Assembly (NCBI GenBank): GCA_044345405.1
Contig: JBIJBE010000040.1
Span: 1 to 31,546, forward strand
Length of the DNA stretch: 31,546 bases
Direction: 5' to 3'
DNA from: Bdellovibrionota bacterium
GTDB lineage: Bacteria > Bdellovibrionota_C > UBA2361 > OMII01
Below are positions 1,264-31,546 of the stretch, one piece after another; positions within the stretch are counted from its first letter, which is position 1, and every line of letters starts with the position of its first letter. The translations under genes and the position numbers were made by a program. The notes below the pieces were generated by a model. It was given only the letters and a program-made list of their open reading frames with translations, made no database searches and was not told the DNA's origin.

Positions 1264-2277
1264 TTATTCGGGCCGAATCATACCGTGCGCGAGGAGGTCC
1301 TGAATATCGATCAGGCCGACCGGGATGTTGCGGTTATCCACAACCATGAGCTGGTCGATCTTGCGCTCTTGGATGATGCGAGCGGCCTCGGTCGCGAGCT
1401 TGTCGGAAGTTATTGTGATGGGAGTGCGGGAGCAGAGCGTTCCTATAGGTTTTGACAGGAACTCAACGTCATGTTCGAGGCACCGTCGAAGGTTTCCGTC
1501 AGTGAATACACCGACGATAACGCCCGAGTCGTCTACGATACTCGCCGCTCCGGGGCGTCCTTTCGTCTCGGTGATGAGGTGTAATGCCTTCTTGGTCTCC
1601 ACGGACTCGTGAACAACGCAACAGCTTTCTCCAGTGCGCATTATGTCGGAGACGAGCATAAGTGAGCGCCCGAGATCCCCGCCTGGATGGAACGCGGCGA
1701 AGTCTTCCTTGGAGAATCCTCGGCGCTTCACAAGTGTCATCGCGAGCGCGTCACCGAGCGCCATCATCACGGTGGTGCTCGTAGTTGGCGCGAGTCCAAG
1801 GGGGCCGGCCTCTATAAATCTGCCCGTGGCGATAACAACATCGCTATGTCGACCAAGAGTTGACGCTGGTGTGCTTGTGATCGAGATGATGTGACTTCCA
1901 CGTTGTTTGAGTGTGGGAAGGAGACGAATGAGTTCGGATGTCTCGCCTGAGTTTGAAAGAAGAAGCGCGAGATCGTTGGAGGTGAAACGTCCAAGATCTC
2001 CGTGCACCGCTTCAGCTGGATGAAGATAGAAACTTGGGAATCCGATACTTGAGAGGGTCGCGGAGATCTTTTGCGCGACGAATCCCGCCTTCCCCATGCC
2101 TGAGACGACGATGCGAGAGCCCGCTGGGAGGGCGAGGATCGTCTCAAGGGCGGTGGTGAACGAATCGTCGAGGAGATCCGCCACCTGATTGAGGGCAGCG
2201 ATCTCCTCTTTGATTATCGAGCGACCGTACGCGATGTCCGCCGCTGTGTTCGATTTTGTTCGAATAGGATCGCCCAT
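1264..2277 (-). CDS. kdsD: KpsF/GutQ family arabinose-5-phosphate isomerase (SIS + 2 CBS)
   Basis: Motifs SGMGKAG, LHPAEAVHGDLG, SNSGET, LAPTTSTT, HPGG; C-terminal CBS pair (FTDGNLRR). Confidence 0.95.
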   Translation of the reverse strand: MGDPIRTKSNTAADIAYGRSIIKEEIAALNQVADLLDDSFTTALETILALPAGSRIVVSGMGKAGFVAQKISATLSSIGFPSFYLHPAEAVHGDLGRFTSNDLALLLSNSGETSELIRLLPTLKQRGSHIISITSTPASTLGRHSDVVIATGRFIEAGPLGLAPTTSTTVMMALGDALAMTLVKRRGFSKEDFAAFHPGGDLGRSLMLVSDIMRTGESCCVVHESVETKKALHLITETKGRPGAASIVDDSGVIVGVFTDGNLRRCLEHDVEFLSKPIGTLCSRTPITITSDKLATEAARIIQERKIDQLMVVDNRNIPVGLIDIQDLLAHGMIRPE

Positions 2278-2358
2278 AACCCAGATAGTATAGCTGGTCC
2301 CGCCGGCTTAATCCAACCCTTTGAAAACGTGATGGAAAAAGGCGCTTATGGAGCGAGG

Positions 2359-4506
2359 TTACGAGATTGAGCGGTACTTAATTCGCAGCGAGTTCCCCAC
2401 GATTATGAGGTCTGAGAAGGTCATCAGGAGCGCCCCAGCCAACGGCGATATGTAGCCGCTCGCCGCGAGAGGAACCGTCGCAACGTTGTAGACAAGAGCC
2501 CAGAAGAGGTTTTGCTTAATCGTTCGCACCGTGAGACGAGAGAGTCGAATCGCGGACGGAAGCGCCCCGATCGTTCCCCCGGTTAAGAGGACCTGCGCTG
2601 ATTGCATCGCGATGTCTGAGCCCGAGCTTAATGAGACTCCGACCGCGGCCTCGGCGAGCGTTGGCGCGTCGTTGATACCATCACCCACGTACGCCACCGG
2701 TTGCTTATCTTGGAGCGCTCGAAGGAGTCCGAGCTTCTGGTCAGGGAGCTGTTGCGCGTGAATCGTATGTATACCAACGGCGGTCGCTACTTCACGACAT
2801 TTCTCGGCGGTGTCTCCACTAATCAAAGAGGTTCCGCACGCAAGCGCATCGAGTTGTTTAATAACTGATGGTGCCTCAGGACGGAGCTCATCCTGTAGTT
2901 GAAGTGAAGCGATAACCACGCCGTTTCGCGTGAGAATGATGTCGTCAAAAAGTTGAACGCCGATCTGAGTCGCGAGATTTCGCCCTCCGCATTGATAAAG
3001 CGCTCCATTATCTCCTTTGCCGGAGAGTCCAACTCCTTTGGTCTCTACGATATCCGATAGGTGGATAGAGTTCAGCTCGGTGGACTGAAGGTCTCGAACG
3101 ATCGCTTGGGCGATTGGGTGAGAAGAGGCGCGCTGGAGAGAGACGAGAACGGATCGAGCGGAGCGTTGATCCTCATCGTTATGAGTTCGGAACTTCTTAA
3201 CGCTCAACGTGCCCTTGGTAAGTGTCCCGGTTTTATCAAACGCTACGTGGGATATCTGACCAAGTCGCTCCAGGGTATCTCCTCCTCGGATAAGGATACC
3301 GGAGCGAGCCGCGCGACCGATCGCGACCATAATAGCGCTTGGTGTCGCGAGTCCCATCGCGCATGGGCAGGCAACCACAACTATCGCGAGCGAGCGAACA
3401 ATCGCTTGCGCCATTGTCACATCAAATACGAGTGTGCTGAGGACGAAGGTAAGGACCGCTATCGCGAGCACCGATGGAACGAAGACCGCGCTAACCGCGT
3501 CGCCGATGCGCTGAATGGAGGGTTTTCGTTGCTGCGCGTCGCGTACGAGGCGGATGATCCCCGCGAGTGTGGTGTCATCTCCGACCGCGGATGTTTGAAC
3601 AACCACTGAACCCTCGACGAGCACGGTGCCGCCGATTACCTTATCACCTTGCCTGTGATCAACGGGAAGCGACTCTCCGGTGAGCATCGATTCATCGAAG
3701 CTTCCTGTGCCGCGAACGATAACGCCATCGGTTGGGCTTCTATCGCCGGTGTTAATTTGTATCAGGTCTCCAACTTTGAGCTCCTCAAGAGGGATGGTTT
3801 CGAGGAGGTCTAAACCGGACTCCTGTGAGCGTAGCCGTCGTACCTCTTGAGGTTGGAGTTGGGAGAGCTCCTCAATAGCTGAGGTCGTTTTTTTCACCGC
3901 GAGCTCCTCAAGGAGGTGGCCGATAAGAACGAATGTTACGATGGATCCAACCGCCTCAAAGAAGAGGAGGTCGTGAGAGAGCCCGAACGTAACGGTAAGC
4001 ATGCTCGCGATGTACGCGGCGAGAATTCCCGCCGTGATGAGCACGTCCATGTTCGCGACTCCAGCCTTGAGCGACCGAAGCCCGCTACTTCCGAAGTGAA
4101 GAATTCCGATGATGAACACGGGGGTCGCGAGGATCGCTTGAAGGATGGGGTCGTGAAGGGCGTGAATAGAGAAGAACATCCCAGCGAGCATCGGCAGGGT
4201 GAGCACCGCGCTGATAATGGTCATTATGTAGAGGAGGGTATCTCGCCCGTGGTGCGCGTGGTCGTGAGCGTTCTCCTCAACGGAGTAGCCGAGCTTTTGT
4301 ATGCTTTTGATAATATCAGGGAGCTTCGTGGGGTCTTGGAGCGAGAAGCTCGTGCGGCCGCTCGCGAAGTCGACGGTTGGTTTTTCGACCCCGACTCGAG
4401 TGAGGTGCTTCTCAATAGAGAGCGCGCAGTTGGTACAGTGAAGTCCCGATACGTGAAGGGTAACCTCTTGAGCGGGGCGTCGTGGATCGAAATGGCCGTC
4501 AGTCAT
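2359..4506 (-). CDS. copA: Heavy-metal (Cu-type) P1B ATPase
   Basis: N-terminal GLHCTNC metal-binding domain, His-rich linker, TGES, CPCAMGLATP, DKTGT, HP, GDGIND and YN in the late TM helix. Start moved to ATG 4506 (alternative 4515) because the track start at 4668 overlaps the thermonuclease gene. Confidence 0.92.
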   Translation of the reverse strand: MTDGHFDPRRPAQEVTLHVSGLHCTNCALSIEKHLTRVGVEKPTVDFASGRTSFSLQDPTKLPDIIKSIQKLGYSVEENAHDHAHHGRDTLLYIMTIISAVLTLPMLAGMFFSIHALHDPILQAILATPVFIIGILHFGSSGLRSLKAGVANMDVLITAGILAAYIASMLTVTFGLSHDLLFFEAVGSIVTFVLIGHLLEELAVKKTTSAIEELSQLQPQEVRRLRSQESGLDLLETIPLEELKVGDLIQINTGDRSPTDGVIVRGTGSFDESMLTGESLPVDHRQGDKVIGGTVLVEGSVVVQTSAVGDDTTLAGIIRLVRDAQQRKPSIQRIGDAVSAVFVPSVLAIAVLTFVLSTLVFDVTMAQAIVRSLAIVVVACPCAMGLATPSAIMVAIGRAARSGILIRGGDTLERLGQISHVAFDKTGTLTKGTLSVKKFRTHNDEDQRSARSVLVSLQRASSHPIAQAIVRDLQSTELNSIHLSDIVETKGVGLSGKGDNGALYQCGGRNLATQIGVQLFDDIILTRNGVVIASLQLQDELRPEAPSVIKQLDALACGTSLISGDTAEKCREVATAVGIHTIHAQQLPDQKLGLLRALQDKQPVAYVGDGINDAPTLAEAAVGVSLSSGSDIAMQSAQVLLTGGTIGALPSAIRLSRLTVRTIKQNLFWALVYNVATVPLAASGYISPLAGALLMTFSDLIIVGNSLRIKYRSIS

Positions 4507-25940: not shown

Positions 25941-26061
25941 CAAACGCGTTCGTGCGTCACCCTCTTGGGCGAATCGTGATGCGCGGCCTATGCCCAGGTA
26001 GAGACGTTTTGCGAACGGTATCGTTGGTCTGGCGATGGCCCGCTCTCTCCGGCACCGTTGA
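25941..26061 (+). pseudogene. Probable decayed 3' end of a paralog of the 28003-29886 gene
   Basis: Collinear short matches to 29765-29918: CAAAyGC, GGCGA..TGATGCGC, TTGGTC, GCCCG and CGTTGAGGCT. The last frame reads ANGIVGLAMARSL, against VNAYIGRALARKL in the intact gene. Confidence 0.42.
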
Positions 26062-26310
26062 GGCTTGTTGATGTGTAGGGCCCGACTCCTGGCTAGAACG
26101 ATCAATAGACTGGCCTCAGCACTCACCGGAAGGGCTCTGTCCCCAGAGTCCGCTTATGCAATTACATAGCGAATTGGATCGCGATAATCGGTGCGTTATG
26201 CAATCTCGGTTGCCGCGCCGGCTCGTCGGGAGACGAGCCCTCCGGGAGAGGATAATCTGCATAGTATTGTGGGACCAACTTCAAGCCCCTCCACGCCAAA
26301 CGGCCCGTAA
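26057..26310 (+). repeat. Structured non-coding repeat, copy A
   Basis: Aligns by eye with 30187-30439 over its whole length, and from 26140 onward with 27687-27854. Confidence 0.9.
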
Positions 26311-26334: not shown

Positions 26335-27537
26335 CTAGTCCAAAAAGTCGAAGTTGAGGGGGCTTCTCATGAGCCAGCCTTCTGCCACGACAGTGCCGAC
26401 GAGTGATGGGGAGTTCAGCGTTGTGGCAGATATGACCGCTCCTGTTTTCCAATCGGGCTCGGCGAAGCGTTCGCGTGACAGAAGATCTCGCTGATTCGGA
26501 AAACCGAGTTTCACCTCAATAGGGGTTACACCGCGGGATGTGCTGACTATAAAATCAACCTCATCTCCGTCCCGTGTTCGCCAGAAATGTATCTCGACAG
26601 GACGTGTTCGGTTGAGGCAGTGGCGCACAATTCCGCCGAGCATGTGGGTCTCGAAAGCAGCTCCGCCGAGTGGGCCATGCAGTAGGCTTTCAACGGAGTT
26701 CCAGCCTCCAAGGTATGCGGCGAGCCCCATGTCCAAAAAATAGAGCTTGGGGCTCTTGATGAGTCGTTTCGTTCGATTCGAATGGAGAGGATGAACGAGC
26801 TTTATGATGAAGCTATCCTCAAGGACTGAAAGCCACCCCTTGATAGTTGACGCGGAGACTCCAACATCTCTGGCAAAGTCGTCGTAGTTCACAATCTGTC
26901 CGGTGCGAAGGGCGCACATCTTAAGAAACACCTCAAACTCCCGGCGCTTCTGAACGCCGAGAAGTGCTTGAATGTCCCGCTCTACGTATGTTTGGAGGTA
27001 GCTGTTAAGAAAAAGCGCTCGTTGATCGAGGTCGCGGATCGAGAAGAGACGAGGAAAGGATGTTTCTAAAATGCTTTCGAAGAGCGATTGCGCGTTATCG
27101 GCGTGGAGTTGCTTCTCTTCATCGCTGAGTCCCAGCAGATGTATGATTCCGACCCGTCCGGCCAGGGACTCCCTCACTCCCCGCATCACGTCGAAGTTTT
27201 GTGAGCCTGTCAGCCAGACACTTCCAGGCTCGCCACCCTGATCGATGAGAAGTTTCAGGTGGCTCAAGACCTGGGGGGCGTACTGAATCTCATCAATGAG
27301 TACCGGCAGCTTGATGCTCTGGGTGAACAGTTCGGGAGACTCAGTGGCTCGACGACGAGTTGGGAGGTCGTCGAGTGAGATGTACTGACGGCCTGAGGAA
27401 CTACAGTGCTTGAGAAGGGAGGTTTTTCCTACCTGGCGTGGTCCAAGGAGTAACCAAATCGGAAAGAGATCGAGTGATGATGGCGATACGAGGGGAGTCT
27501 CTAAAGTCCTTGTAATCCAGTCACTTGGCATTTCCAT
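26335..27537 (-). CDS. AAA_14 ATPase with DUF4143 / PD-(D/E)XK-like C-terminus
   Basis: GPRQVGKT, LIDEIQ, LTGS, ESLAGR, TYVERDI, KSPKLYFLDMGL and FWRTRDGDEVDF...PIEVK. Confidence 0.93.
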   Translation of the reverse strand: MEMPSDWITRTLETPLVSPSSLDLFPIWLLLGPRQVGKTSLLKHCSSSGRQYISLDDLPTRRRATESPELFTQSIKLPVLIDEIQYAPQVLSHLKLLIDQGGEPGSVWLTGSQNFDVMRGVRESLAGRVGIIHLLGLSDEEKQLHADNAQSLFESILETSFPRLFSIRDLDQRALFLNSYLQTYVERDIQALLGVQKRREFEVFLKMCALRTGQIVNYDDFARDVGVSASTIKGWLSVLEDSFIIKLVHPLHSNRTKRLIKSPKLYFLDMGLAAYLGGWNSVESLLHGPLGGAAFETHMLGGIVRHCLNRTRPVEIHFWRTRDGDEVDFIVSTSRGVTPIEVKLGFPNQRDLLSRERFAEPDWKTGAVISATTLNSPSLVGTVVAEGWLMRSPLNFDFLD

Positions 27538-27686: not shown

Positions 27687-28002
27687 TCCCCAGAGTCCGC
27701 TTATGCAAGTACATGACGAATTGGATCGCGATAATCGGTGCGTTATGCAATCTCGGTCGCCGCGCCGGCTCGTCAGGAGACGAGCCCTCCGGGTGGATGC
27801 TCACCATGGTGTTGTAGCCACAACCTCAAGCCCCTACACGCTAAATGCCCATAAACATCCTTCGTCCAGTAGGGTCTAAATAGACGCAATCTGTATGTAT
27901 CAGAGGAATGCCGCTTGGCGGACGTAGCTTAGCGCCTGGCTATCGTTACACTACTACTGTGGCTGTCAGCCGCGCAAAGAAACGGAGACGGTGGAGAGAC
28001 CT
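27687..28002 (+). repeat. Structured non-coding repeat, copy B (5'-truncated), plus conserved leader of paralog 1
   Basis: TCCCCAGAGTCCGCTTATGCAA...GGCTCGTCAGGAGACGAGCC is shared with copies A and C. 27851-28002 is highly similar to 30436-30587. Confidence 0.9.
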
Positions 28003-29886
28003 ATGAGTGGCGGGATGCAAGTAGTAAGTCGTCAGCAAATCGACGGTGGTAATCAAGGATCCACGATGGTACCTGAATCGCCTCTCGTTGCGGATTCGAC
28101 GCCGCAGCTCACCCCGCCAGCGCGGGTAAGCCCTGAAGTGGCGTTGATGGGTATGGCGCGAGAGGGTTTGCAAGTCCTCAATCAGCTTGTTCAAGCATTA
28201 ATCAAAGGTGACCCCGAGGGTGCTGGTGCGGATGAGCAACTGCAGACGTTCAGTGCGCTGATTGACAGAGCTCGGACCGAATTCAGACTTTGTGGAGACG
28301 CGGTCGACCCAGAACTATTGGCGGGGGCCTTGTTGGAACTCCATCGGGTTCTCAACCAATTCGAGGTGATTGACGAATCGGAAAACGTGGTTCTTACAAA
28401 GATGCGGATGTTTCTCGATGAGATAGCCGCTGGCCTGGAACAACCCGCGTCGGCGAACCTAGAAAAAGTGTGCAGCACCCAAGCGCAAGCGAGGGAGGCT
28501 TTCGAGGAGGAACTGAAGCACATTCAAGAGCGGGTGGATCTTGTTTCTAGTCATTCGGAACTAACGGCTCTCTATCGTAAACGCTTCGATTCTCAAGAGC
28601 AGCGCAAGGAGAAGGCCGCCGAATTTCAAGCGCTCGGGGCCCGTCTTATGAAGGTAGCTGCGGGCGGTGATCTTACCACTGCCTTGGAGCAGCTCATCGA
28701 ACGCACGTATGCGTCTGTGAGAGCGCTTAACACCTCCGCGGCAGAGAGCGCCGACTTCGAGGATGCGCTAAAGAATGTTCTTATCACCGCGGGCAAGCTA
28801 CGGAATGCTGGCTTTAAGGATGCCTCACTTGACGAGCTCATCGCAGGGAGCGTTGTTGCGCTTGTTGCCGCTCAGACGGGGCAGATAGCGCTCGTAGAAA
28901 AGGCTGAGCGAGGTCTCGTCGATCGGCTCATGGGAACCTCTCGGCGTCGTTCAGAGAAGGCGCTTGTAGCAGCGTTCGAAGAGGATTACGTCTTGGGGCA
29001 GGCAGCGCAGCTTGTGAGTAAGTATTTTGATGTCAACGTCTTGAGTAGAGAGGAGACGTGTAAAATAAGGCTGGCGGAGCTATCAGAAGAGATGGCGAAG
29101 ATCTACCTCTCAGAGGGGATGGAAGGTGCGAAGCGGTTCGAGGCTTCCATCCAGGGTTGGGTACGGGAGGGAATGCGGTACGGCCTCAAGGAGGAGCTTC
29201 CCCGCGTTGCCGACATAGTTGTGCCAGCGTTGCTTGGAAAAAACTTTCTTGGTCCCAAAGAGTGGAATGCGCAGGGGATATATGTGGGCACTCCACCACC
29301 GCTCCCCTCGTCGATAACGGAGGCGCTCTTAAACTCGTATTGTCCGCTTCATCATGGAGAGAAGATTAAGGACACGCATGTCTTAGTGCTTGTTCCTAAG
29401 ACGGTGAATGGGAGGCCGTATACGGCATTAGAGCTTGATAAGCTGTGCGCTGAGAGGAAGGGGTCGGGGGATAAGTTGATCTACCGTGGAGCAGATTTTG
29501 CGAACACCTGGAAGAAGTGCGGTTGGGCGAAAGCTGCGCAAGTTAAAAGTGAATGGGTGTTAATGCCGAAGAGCGATCCTGACCCGTTTGTGTCTCCAGT
29601 CAAGCATTTTAGGAGGAAGAACATAGCGGAGCAGCAGAAGGTGCACGATGATCACTACCGAGAGTATCGGCAGGTGAAAGCGCGTGAGGTTATGACGCTA
29701 GCGTTACTGTATGACCTTGTGAACAAGGAGCGACTGCTTCCTGACCAACTTCGTTGCGAAGAACCAAATGCTTCTGGCGGGGAGGTCTGCGTTGGCGACT
29801 TTGATGCGCATGGGTTGTTGGTCCGCGTTTGCTGGGACGGCAACGTCAATGCCTACATTGGTCGTGCCCTTGCCCGGAAGTTGTAG
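28003..29886 (+). CDS. Large helical protein with C-terminal CLec-like domain; candidate DGR target (paralog 1)
   Basis: ATG 28003 is chosen because it is conserved in paralog 2 (GAGACCTATGAGTGGC). About 400 aa of helical N-terminus precede a domain FLGPKEW...PPPLP...CPLH..EKIKDTHVLVLVPKTVNG...WVLM...RC...VCVGDFDAHGL...IGRALARKL. The ORF is secure; the functional call is inference. Confidence 0.8.
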   Translation: MSGGMQVVSRQQIDGGNQGSTMVPESPLVADSTPQLTPPARVSPEVALMGMAREGLQVLNQLVQALIKGDPEGAGADEQLQTFSALIDRARTEFRLCGDAVDPELLAGALLELHRVLNQFEVIDESENVVLTKMRMFLDEIAAGLEQPASANLEKVCSTQAQAREAFEEELKHIQERVDLVSSHSELTALYRKRFDSQEQRKEKAAEFQALGARLMKVAAGGDLTTALEQLIERTYASVRALNTSAAESADFEDALKNVLITAGKLRNAGFKDASLDELIAGSVVALVAAQTGQIALVEKAERGLVDRLMGTSRRRSEKALVAAFEEDYVLGQAAQLVSKYFDVNVLSREETCKIRLAELSEEMAKIYLSEGMEGAKRFEASIQGWVREGMRYGLKEELPRVADIVVPALLGKNFLGPKEWNAQGIYVGTPPPLPSSITEALLNSYCPLHHGEKIKDTHVLVLVPKTVNGRPYTALELDKLCAERKGSGDKLIYRGADFANTWKKCGWAKAAQVKSEWVLMPKSDPDPFVSPVKHFRRKNIAEQQKVHDDHYREYRQVKAREVMTLALLYDLVNKERLLPDQLRCEEPNASGGEVCVGDFDAHGLLVRVCWDGNVNAYIGRALARKL

Positions 29887-29997
29887 CAATCGAGCTACCG
29901 CCGTCGCACGTTGAGGCTCTATCGCGAGACAGACTATGATCAACCGGCGAAGTACGAGGTTCAATTGCCACCCTCTCGTTCACCCCACCCTCGCTAC

Positions 29998-30178
29998 GCT
30001 CGGGAGCCCCTTCAAGGGGCTGCCTTGATCGTTGGGACTTGGATCATTGGGAATGGCACATTCCCCTTCGTTAAACCTTCCACCTTCGCTCCTATCGGGG
30101 GCTTCGGTGGATAAGACGGGGGACAAGTTAGAAGCCGTAGCGCAGCGGAGGCGTGGCCGTTTGGTTCTTGGGCGGCCA
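29998..30178. repeat. Cluster of short REP-like hairpins
   Basis: AGCCCCT-tca-AGGGGCT (30005-30021), GGGAATG-gca-CATTCCC (30049-30065), TCCACC...GGTGGA and TGGCCGT...GCGGCCA. Confidence 0.55.
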
Positions 30179-30186
30179 TCGCAACG

Positions 30187-30587
30187 GTTGAGGCTTGTTG
30201 ATGTGTAGGGCCCGATTCCTAGTGAGAACGATCAATAGACTGCCCTCAGCACTCACGGGATCGCCTCTGTCGTCGGAGGCCGCTTAAGCAATGACATAAC
30301 GAATTTGATCGCGAGGATCGGCGCGTTATGCAATCTCGGTCGCCGCGCCGGCTCGTGGGGAGAGGAGCCCTCCGGGGGAGGATAATCTGCATAGTGTTGT
30401 GGGACCAACCTCAAGCTCCTGGACGCCAACCGCACATAAACATCTTACGCCCAGTAAGGCGTAACTAGACGCAACGTGTATGTATCGGAAAAATGCCGCT
30501 TGGCGGACGTAGCTTAACGCCTGGCTATCGTTACACTACTACTGTGGCTGTTAGCCGCGTGAAGAAACGGAGCCGGTGGCGAGACCT
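30187..30587 (+). repeat. Structured non-coding repeat, copy C (longest), plus conserved leader of paralog 2
   Basis: Contains both the 5' part shared only with copy A and the 3' leader shared only with copy B. Confidence 0.9.
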
Positions 30588-31546
30588 ATGAGTGGCATGA
30601 TGCGAGAAGTATTTCCTCAGCAAAGCAACGGTGGCAACCAAGAGGCTGTGATGGCGGCTCAATCATCTATCGTCGCAGAGCCCAACCAGGAGCTCATCCC
30701 GCCAGCGCGGGTAGGTCCTGAAGTCGCGTTGATGGGTATGGCGCGAGAGGGTTTGCAAGATCTCAATGAGGTTGTGAAAGCATTAGCCCAAGGGGAGCTC
30801 CAGGCCACCGGAACGGATACGCACTTACACAATCTCAGTGGCCAGATTATCAATGCCGCGGCCCATTGCAAAGTCGGGGCTGATGGTGTCGACGGACTCG
30901 TGTTGGCAGGGGCTTTATTTGAACTTGAACGGGTTATTCGTAAATCCGGGCGGATTGATGAAACCGGAAACATAGCTTTTACAACGATGAGGGAGTTTCT
31001 TGAGCAGATAGCATCGGGTCTTAAAAATGTAGAGACGGCGAACCTAGAGACCTTGTACGCCTCACAACGGGAGGCTAAGCACGCTGTCGAGGAGTATCTG
31101 AACCAGTTAAAAGAGCAGGGGCTTCCTGTTCGTTGTGATGAGCCAAAAACGGTTCTGTATCGGGAACTTTACGGTACGGAGGAACGGCGCAGAGAGAACG
31201 CCGCCCCATTTGAAGAGCTCGCGTCCCGTCTTTTGAAAGTAGCTGTGGACGCGGATGCTACAGAGACCTTGGCGCACCTCTGCAGGGACGCATATGCTGC
31301 TCTCTGTGCGGTTCGCTCCTCTGTGAAAACGGGCTCTCAATTAAAGGATGCACTGAAGAGTGTGCTCTCTACCTCCGTGAAGCTGCGAAAAGCTGGCTTT
31401 GACGCGGCTCTCCTCGACGAGGCCATACAAGAGAGCGTCGCCGGGCTTTTCGCTGCGCATGTGGGAGTTGAGGGACGACTCGTCAAACCTGAGCGAAGTC
31501 TTGTCGATCGCCTCTTTGGAGTCTCACGGCGTCGGTCAGAGAAAGC
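30588..31546 (+). CDS. Paralog 2 of the 28003-29886 gene; runs off the window
   Basis: Not in the ORF track. Manual translation is open to the edge: MSGMMREV...PPARVGPEVALMGMAREGLQDLN...LAGALFELERV...KLRKAGF...ERSLVDRLFGVSRRRSEK, collinear with paralog 1. Confidence 0.92.
   Translation, partial: MSGMMREVFPQQSNGGNQEAVMAAQSSIVAEPNQELIPPARVGPEVALMGMAREGLQDLNEVVKALAQGELQATGTDTHLHNLSGQIINAAAHCKVGADGVDGLVLAGALFELERVIRKSGRIDETGNIAFTTMREFLEQIASGLKNVETANLETLYASQREAKHAVEEYLNQLKEQGLPVRCDEPKTVLYRELYGTEERRRENAAPFEELASRLLKVAVDADATETLAHLCRDAYAALCAVRSSVKTGSQLKDALKSVLSTSVKLRKAGFDAALLDEAIQESVAGLFAAHVGVEGRLVKPERSLVDRLFGVSRRRSEK

Follow-up and report, generated by a model that had tools for sequence, protein, structure and literature searches.

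Mutagenic retrohoming has its archetype in the diversity-generating retroelement (DGR) of Bordetella phage BPP-1, which consists of Mtd, a template repeat (TR), Avd, and Brt. DGRs and their lectin-fold targets are already established, as are remote targets and decayed loci, and the DGR variable proteins of FGE-type lectin fold with which the present case can be compared include TvpA of Treponema denticola (2y3c) and TaqVP of Thermus aquaticus (5vf4). Two reports (Kaur et al. 2020, PMC7159879; Dore et al. 2023, bioRxiv 10.1101/2023.09.22.558884) connect DGR-diversified lectin/FGS sensors with MoxR-like AAA ATPases, with STAND NTPases, and with kinases, and the second also describes remote targets and "inactive remnants" of DGRs. 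Here, a DNA stretch of 31,546 nucleotides (the window; contig JBIJBE010000040.1 of the Bdellovibrionota assembly GCA_044345405.1) was analyzed for a gene (the target gene, Table 1) with a candidate DGR variable region (VR) at its 3' end. Mutagenic homing by a DGR almost certainly did produce the VR, which lies in a lectin-fold receptor domain, and in its own genome the VR has probably been orphaned and frozen and has begun to drift.

According to the proposed mechanism, which follows established DGR biology, a reverse transcriptase (RT) and an accessory bAvd would copy the TR into cDNA, misreading adenines, and the cDNA would replace the VR at the 3' end of the lectin-fold domain. Residue change would be limited to AAY, GAY, AAG, or ATT template codons. 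A full-text literature search gave no paper joining DGRs with Bdellovibrio or Bdellovibrionota, and large DGR surveys and their supplements may list such loci. The present loci document DGRs in a genus of freshwater Bdellovibrionota.

Variable region of the target gene

When the cassette loci L054 to L057 (see below) were compared by blastn with the genome of the window, the VR aligned at 76–77% identity. It ended 4 nt before the stop codon. The core of the VR (29785-29879, 95 nt) was compared with the TR of locus L056 from the same-genus genome G026, and the two differed at 15 of 27 adenine sites and at 6 of 68 other sites (Fisher p = 3e-6). Fourteen of the 16 variable residues could be reached from the template by changing adenines only; the unreachable ones were a Cys (TGC at a GAC codon) and a Trp (TGG at an AAC codon). 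The homology of VR and TR flanks stopped at CGGAA, beyond which VRs and TRs diverged, and the invariant VR 3' end (Table 1) is presumed to be the homing boundary, resembling an initiation of mutagenic homing (IMH) site.

The first-pass annotation of the window, made from the sequence alone, had proposed that a C-type-lectin-fold domain carries a DGR variable region at its very 3' end, and both the TR homology and the modeled fold bore this out. The template that it had guessed (VGNFNANGL.VNNNWNNNNNNNIG) was close to the real TR of same-genus genomes (translation VCVGNFNANGLKVNDDNDDNDNDNIG). In this case, the codon pattern of a single raw sequence was enough to recognize a DGR variable region, and such codon signatures could reveal targets whose cassette is absent from the bin.

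The codon pattern was evaluated by itself. The third bases of the 30 in-frame codons at 29785-29874 were 15 C, 10 T, 5 G, and 0 A, in full agreement with the first-pass count (25 C/T, 5 G, and no A), and only 10 of the 90 bases at all codon positions were A. Third positions over the whole target gene (G 237, T 154, C 134, A 107) agreed with the many NNG/NNA codons that had been noted upstream. Among the gene's 602 segments of thirty codons, this one was the most extreme and the sole one with 25 pyrimidines. Ten of the 25 C/T-ending codons were forced, as they encode C, D, F, H, N, or Y; of the free-choice codons, 15 of 19 ended in C/T vs 171 of 363 (47%) upstream (binomial p = 0.005, chosen post hoc). 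Genome-wide segments were drawn from stop-to-stop frames of >= 200 codons (2,865 frames), and 9,921 of 1,055,694 (0.94%) reached 25 pyrimidines; well over a hundred of the frames had such a segment that was also free of third-position A. By itself, the third-position statistic is only mildly unusual and weak as a chance test, and comparative evidence was therefore needed for its meaning.

The same survey showed that contigs C16, C81, and C42 of the genome held many long frames with 27–30 of 30 codons ending in C/T, unlike the remaining genome. This codon usage suggests foreign DNA or contamination (genome contamination estimate 3.5%).

The comparative evidence came from homologs of the domain. 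In the protein alignment, the domain was strongly conserved except for the tail, VCVG-x-F-x-A-x-GL-x-V-(11 x)-x-GRALARK. In the tail DNA of homologs with 50–72% identical proteins, and likewise across genomes where the proteins were 60–68% identical, the fixed codons were the same even at synonymous sites, and every variable codon retained its own third base, one column being always NNG. With the L056 TR as the reference for residue spectra, 44 of the 53 other homologs fit a 31-residue frame, and the remaining nine were length variants. At adenine-bearing codons of the 44 homologs, 691 of 704 residues were reachable by adenine-only change and 500 of 704 were changed from the template, whereas at adenine-free codons 643 of 660 residues were identical. 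The GAC/GAT columns held only D/G/A/V for GAC, apart from four exceptions; the AAG column held K/E/R/G/W/V/L plus one N, and the ATT column I/V/F/L plus one R and one A. All 16 variable residues were reachable in 36 of the 44. In five little-diverged VRs (L002, L003, L004, L005, and L012a), 0–2 of 68 non-adenine sites mismatched heterologous TRs, and in other paralogs 20–26 of 68 did, which is background divergence. The tail variation of the family is the textbook result of DGR adenine mutagenesis.

It is very improbable, on this evidence, that the stretch is not DGR-derived and owes its pattern to its amino-acid composition, to a local codon bias, or to a surface loop that evolved fast by ordinary means. 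The commonness of the third-position statistic in the genome and the forced codons given above speak for such an origin. Against it stand the column-specific residue spectra, which are those predicted from the real TR, the conservation of synonymous sites in fixed codons across genomes with diverged proteins, the excess of adenine sites among the window's own mismatches, and the physical TR-bAvd-RT cassettes that adjoin homologous targets.

Cassettes in metagenomes and in the genus

The pattern of the deduced TR had no match in a viral contig collection and matched three metagenome contigs. In locus L053, the order was the 3'-terminal part of a homologous target, including the VR, then a spacer of ~400 nt, the TR, a bAvd gene, and an RT gene. 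The bAvd gene (PF22296, 58 bits; NCBIfam DGR Avd, 75.5 bits, slightly below the cut-off of 80) ran in the opposite direction, and the RT had 350 residues (RVT_1, 49.8 bits). The VR and the TR of L053 were identical at 95 of 110 positions, and, by reading of the alignment, 14 of the 15 mismatches were at TR adenines. The TRs of L054 and L055 translate to VCVGNFNANGLKVNDDNDDNDNDNIGRAL, and L055 also carried bAvd and the start of an RT.

RTs of the L053 clade were found at E <= 1e-40 in 7 of 24 same-genus genomes, and RT fragments with internal stops were present in same-genus and same-order genomes (G024, G021, and G030). In G026 and G027, the TR was beside the RT. The VR/TR pair of G026 differed at 15 of 27 adenine sites and at none of 68 other sites, and just the last 46 codons of its target were present, at a contig end. 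The 95-nt TR core was identical in G026 (L056) and in the separate metagenome contig L054. Locus L056 began 43 nt ahead of its own TR, and both L057 and the G026 target contig were cut at the repeat. When the five RT-bearing genomes were searched with the domain alone, there was no strong whole-domain match; the best were the VR fragment of G026 and the TRs themselves.

Cassette and target are rarely together in metagenome-assembled genomes (MAGs), probably at least in part because assembly breaks at the VR/TR repeat. Since cassettes and targets rarely share one MAG in this genus, surveys that need RT, TR, and VR on one contig or bin would miss its DGRs.

It is conceivable, if doubtful, that the nearly invariant TR, bAvd, and RT circulate as a small, possibly mobile cassette of the genus that services dispersed lectin-fold targets in trans, this gene included, and that the family is a broad class of tunable receptors. 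If so, targets in different species would be repeatedly overwritten from the same template, and an undescribed domain family, fused to MoxR-like ATPases, kinases, and NACHT NTPases, would include relatives from amoeba-associated Bacteroidota and Chlamydiae.

Three further observations concern the cassettes. Another locus, L052 (G004:C65:1-1790), contains a DGR whose RT belongs to the same clade (56% identity); it includes bAvd and diversifies a different, much smaller target, and its VR reads …GSVPGFVLYTDPDNGVFVVRCLDDFGHAVVAASGSPSPESK and its TR reads …GFALNTNQNNGVNVNRYNDDNDNDNVAAS. In L054, the DNA beyond the TR (1-650), where bAvd and RT would be expected, was a repeat. Several copies at 74–81% identity were present in the genome of the window (C49:16988-17443 and 27881-28182, C51:7325-7898, C25:5415-5665, and C77:14536-14749), with further ones at C52:45-294 and C57:6281-6438, some of them at contig ends. 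This repeat looks like an insertion element that may have replaced or disrupted the cassette. Finally, AAA_14/DUF4143 ATPase genes were found just upstream of the target gene (26335-27537, minus strand) and just downstream of the L056 RT (2022-3023, minus strand; 1513-2133, plus strand), the latter with a counterpart at C5:18935-20077 in the genome of the window. This counterpart was considered as the mark of an "empty site" and set aside; AAA_14/DUF4143 is a multi-copy family, and the match is uninformative and may be coincidence.

State of the variable region in its own genome

The genome of the window (G000) is an 85-contig MAG of 3.59 Mb, 99.39% complete. No TR or RT had been seen in the window in the first pass, and neither was found by searching the whole genome. 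With the VR as the query (blastn, word size 7), no second copy was obtained, and an adenine-tolerant scan of both strands of the 85 contigs gave no compatible site, the best having 115 of 171 positions compatible and only 50 identical. RVT_1 (PF00078), which matched in control genomes, and bAvd (PF22296) had 0 matches, as had a protein search for the L053-clade RT, and the best tblastn hits were at E 4.6 for the L053 RT and E 0.94 for the L053 Avd. When seven cassette loci were compared with the genome by blastn and tblastx, only the VR and unrelated repeats aligned. The 690-nt spacer after the target gene, assembled through to the paralog, contained repeats and no TR. A gene for a PF05635 four-helix bundle (C77:10736-11047) was rejected as an Avd candidate, as it is not bAvd and the open reading frame (ORF) list showed no RT-sized ORF beside it.

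The first-pass annotation had suggested a genome-wide BLASTN search for a non-coding copy next to RT and avd genes, and no second copy, RT, or bAvd turned up. It had also held that a genome without TR or DGR-type RT would speak against diversification by a distant TR/RT. This assembly is such a genome, and therefore diversification by a distant cassette at the present day was not shown; the VR was, moreover, identical in the contigs of four metagenome runs. With no cassette anywhere in the assembly, a "remote" cassette is indistinguishable from a "lost" one.

The runs in which the locus occurred were of lake water, and X1 to X10 contained it completely. Contigs from four runs (X2, X13, X16, and X19; one run of 2020, one of 2023, and two of 2024) covered the VR with 0 differences at the level of contigs, which drop rare variants, and X13 and X19 left parts of the locus uncovered. 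One record of X2 (contig record 16) on 29360-29796 was a second family member with 67 differences, which ended where the first adenine-templated codon begins.

Non-adenine mismatches were 6 of 68 in the window VR vs 7 of 340 in the five little-diverged VRs (p = 0.011); in five decayed paralogs they were 113 of 333, far above the window VR. We infer that past homing wrote the window VR and that the extra changes are later drift. Under this reading, the last ~113 nt of the target gene (the VR of Table 1) would have been written by a DGR, the cassette would now be absent from the genome, and the VR would afterwards have gained ordinary point changes. With the cassette absent and ordinary point changes in the VR, the VR would therefore be orphaned and, at present, a frozen leftover of past homing on a chimeric gene. 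The target gene would be a snapshot of a diversified receptor after its diversifier had gone or passed out of sight.

Several observations weigh against an orphaned and frozen VR. Completeness counts marker genes and not accessory elements, and cassettes and targets in the genus are mostly on different contigs, often short or end-cut; the lack of a cassette in the bin therefore says little about its lack in the cell. The genomes holding L002 to L005, whose VRs are nearly template-perfect, had no RT either, and no TR was found beside the targets in the DNA adjoining the close VRs. The six non-adenine differences fell in the codons GCG, GGG, TGC, TGG, GGT, and GCC; two of them (GGT and GCC) were polymorphic among the TRs seen, and all six could be differences from a cognate TR unlike that of G026. 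The 3' end of the window VR was identical to those of the little-diverged L003 and L005, and the boundary is intact. The invariance among contigs is consistent with a static VR, and rare variants can hide behind it.

These points bear on a second explanation, by which the VR continues to be diversified in trans as an active target, and the organism's own cassette has escaped the bin because it lies on a short, repeat-bounded, or mobile contig. We regard this as rather unlikely, while giving it more weight than the circulating cassette outlined above. Same-genus genomes carry a matching cassette, which sits on short contigs or at contig ends (L056, L057, and the G026 target contig), and the window VR ends as the little-diverged VRs do. 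The VRs of L002 and L003 had 0–1 non-adenine mismatches, yet no TR was present within 2.8–3.5 kb downstream and no RT in their genomes; therefore, remote targeting or binning loss is common here. Remote DGR targets are not uncommon according to a preprint (Dore et al. 2023, bioRxiv 10.1101/2023.09.22.558884). On the other side, six different searches gave no TR, RT, or bAvd in a 99.4%-complete assembly, and the VR was assembled cleanly in the contigs of all four runs, whereas active loci in relatives break assemblies. The excess of non-adenine changes over the little-diverged VRs also speaks against an active target, and so does the Trp (TGG), since all TRs observed, like the five little-diverged VRs, have C as the third base of that codon. 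A VR orphaned and frozen after past homing is the reading retained here.

Lectin-fold domain and gene architecture

The C-terminal domain (residues 400-631) was modeled with AlphaFold2 from a 45-sequence alignment (mean pLDDT 96.4, pTM 0.93). The VIA-align 2 matches were EgtB (Z 7.5), PvdO (7.5), SenA, CalU17, TvpA (2y3c, 7.2), CarF, the C-terminal domain of Bd2740 from Bdellovibrio (6.7), InvE, pFGE, the Lcl C-terminal domain (6.3), Mtd (6.1), and TaqVP (4.7), with dozens of animal C-type lectin domains ranked after them. Such Z-scores (4.7–7.5) are middling by the tool's own warning, and the matches were uniform in fold; the model therefore supports a divergent C-type-lectin/FGE-like fold for the C-terminal 232 residues. 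Foldseek gave nothing against the PDB at E <= 0.001, its weak rows being lectin folds. The fold had been predicted in the first pass for residues about 400-627, and the confident model and the VIA-align 2 matches are in line with that.

By sequence, the domain belongs to a family that current models do not cover. The target protein had zero Pfam or NCBIfam family matches, and FGE-sulfatase (PF03781) and DUF1566 (PF07603) did not match at E <= 0.1 (P0001) or at E <= 0.001 (18 diverse homologs). An exhaustive search with the domain gave 1075 representatives at E <= 0.001 in a 50%-identity library, and a search with residues 400-631 gave 55 proteins with 34–100% identity. Of these 55, 30 had an N-terminal AAA_5 in the precomputed Pfam column and 11 were named "MoxR-like ATPase" by their sources. 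More distant members carried kinase/TCAD9, NACHT/HEAT, GTPase, TPR, LRR, or ankyrin regions, and no Pfam model covered the lectin-fold domain itself in any of them (18 diverse homologs scanned). The family was present in 10 of 35 genomes of the genus, one of which had 17 matches; the genome of the window had no other copy. A lectin-fold DGR target family that Pfam and NCBIfam models do not cover is thereby added.

Distant members with 28–37% identity were found in loci L020 to L048, from MAGs of Amoebophilaceae, Cytophagales, Bacteroidota, Verrucomicrobiae, and Chlamydiae. These genomes had many copies of the domain each, often as tandem domains, and some of the proteins had N-termini that appeared F-box-like by eye. 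In the tails (…VVGGFSSGGL-x-V-variable-GV..LRKF), Y, D, S, G, F, H, and C were abundant, the pattern that mutagenesis of AAY codons would leave. An adenine-tolerant scan of the Amoebophilaceae, Cytophagales, and Chlamydiae loci gave no TR and only other tails, the recurrent site at L027:3203 being a domain tail, and no RT was found in the DNA of L020 to L048.

The features of the target gene and its surroundings are given in Table 1. In the public protein cluster P0005, the target starts at Met53 (28147) and has 579 aa. Residues 1 to ~400 are an orphan region, mostly helical. The N-terminal 400 aa matched only themselves among the candidates scored from a collection of 5.8 billion sequences, and no same-genus genome (n=34) had a match to the protein before about residue 382. 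In the Atlas, the region had no feature match, and all structure rows were at TM < 0.4. By these comparisons, the target gene is chimeric: its helical N-terminal region is lineage-specific, and its C-terminal domain is widespread. Its product is most likely a receptor for ligands or antigens, with a specificity that could once be tuned; by eye, the full-length protein shows no obvious signal peptide.

Table 1. Features of the target gene and the DNA downstream of it, with positions in the window
Feature	Position	Strand	Description
Target gene	27991..29886	+	ORF from GTG at 27991, 631 aa
Lectin-fold domain	29188..29883	+	Modeled residues 400-631 of target gene
Variable region (VR)	29770..29882	+	Homologous to TRs of same-genus and metagenome cassettes
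16 variable codons	29797-29799, 29803-29805, 29809-29811, 29818-29820, 29824-29859	+	Match adenine-bearing template codons; invariant codons interspersed
Invariant VR 3' end (GRALARKL)	29860..29883	+	Alignment of 6 VR flanks and 4 TR flanks
Repeated, partly palindromic intergenic element	29945..30062	.	Downstream of target gene
Tandem paralog, 537 aa in all	30576..31546	+	Runs off contig, continues on contig C1:128-~740

Tandem paralog and flanking DNA

The contig of the paralog and C1 overlapped by exactly 127 nt. The paralog was 47% identical to the target over its first 323 aa in the window, and on C1 the similarity extended to about residue 411. Its C-terminal ~130 residues are a different domain with the motif …GYRIATRKEHRAFIQGLL…, which may resemble lectin-like domains. 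The paralog tail had A-ending codons and Q, E, and K residues, no VR signature, and no repeat elsewhere. Kinship of this C-terminus with the small DGR target of L052 was considered and dropped, as the two had no similarity (blastp E = 2.9).

Because similarity stops near residue 411, the tandem duplication concerns the N-terminal part only. The duplication noted in the first-pass annotation accordingly holds for the N-terminal ~411 residues and fails for the C-terminus, which is unrelated. Its chromosomal family of hypervariable paralogs was not found: the tandem paralog has another C-terminal domain and A-ending codons, and there is no second lectin-fold copy.

The DNA upstream of both paralogs was duplicated as well (30276-30575 vs 27693-27990, 84% over 300 nt). 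A third partial copy (30184-30432 vs 26054-26302, 87.5% over 249 nt) was located between ABC-transporter and AAA_14/DUF4143 genes, and it suggests a third copy that was lost or moved.

The intergenic element (…GAGCCCCTTCAAGGGGCT…) was 82–84% identical to DNA downstream of VR genes in L003 (1335-1439), L012 (438-530), and L014 (1-93), and to C5:18711-18820 in the same genome. It occurred at higher depth in other contigs of the same metagenome runs. The element is probably a repeat similar to repetitive extragenic palindromic (REP) sequences, not specific to DGRs.

Comparison with known systems

As in the BPP-1 DGR, substitutions in the present family are confined to TR adenines, the template is rich in AAY codons, and the VR is at the 3' end of the target. 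The related cassettes have a bAvd-family gene (PF22296) and an RVT_1 RT beside the TR, and Mtd was among the structural matches of the domain. Unlike the BPP-1 system, the locus is chromosomal, in a freshwater Bdellovibrionota, rather than that of a phage tail fibre; the related cassettes encode bAvd and the RT on opposite strands, and the window itself has the VR only.

The locus resembles the remote and decayed DGR loci of Dore et al. (2023, bioRxiv 10.1101/2023.09.22.558884) in that its target has no adjacent cassette, and genomes of its genus and order contain RT fragments interrupted by internal stops. The window differs from the remote targets described there in that its genome assembly shows no cassette anywhere.

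With the FGS sensors described by Kaur et al. (2020, PMC7159879) and by Dore et al. (2023, bioRxiv 10.1101/2023.09.22.558884), the family shares its kind of partners: most close homologs of the window domain have an N-terminal MoxR-like AAA_5, and distant ones have kinase and NACHT partners. In contrast to those sensors, the ATPase of the homologs is fused directly to the lectin-fold domain, where theirs is encoded beside a vWA-lectin protein, and the window protein has only its orphan helical N-terminal region in place of such partner domains.

TvpA and TaqVP differ from the window domain in sequence (just 11–13% identity). The window domain, with ~220 residues, has its own conserved N-terminal part, matches no Pfam/NCBIfam model, and has no cassette in its own genome. 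All three nevertheless have the VR at the extreme C-terminus of a lectin/FGE-like fold, with variable residues interleaved with invariant scaffold residues. A tail motif like G-R/F-x-L/A-x-R is presumably also shared. The alignment with TvpA (Z 7.2) covered 150 residues with a root-mean-square deviation of 3.6, and that with TaqVP had a Z of 4.7.

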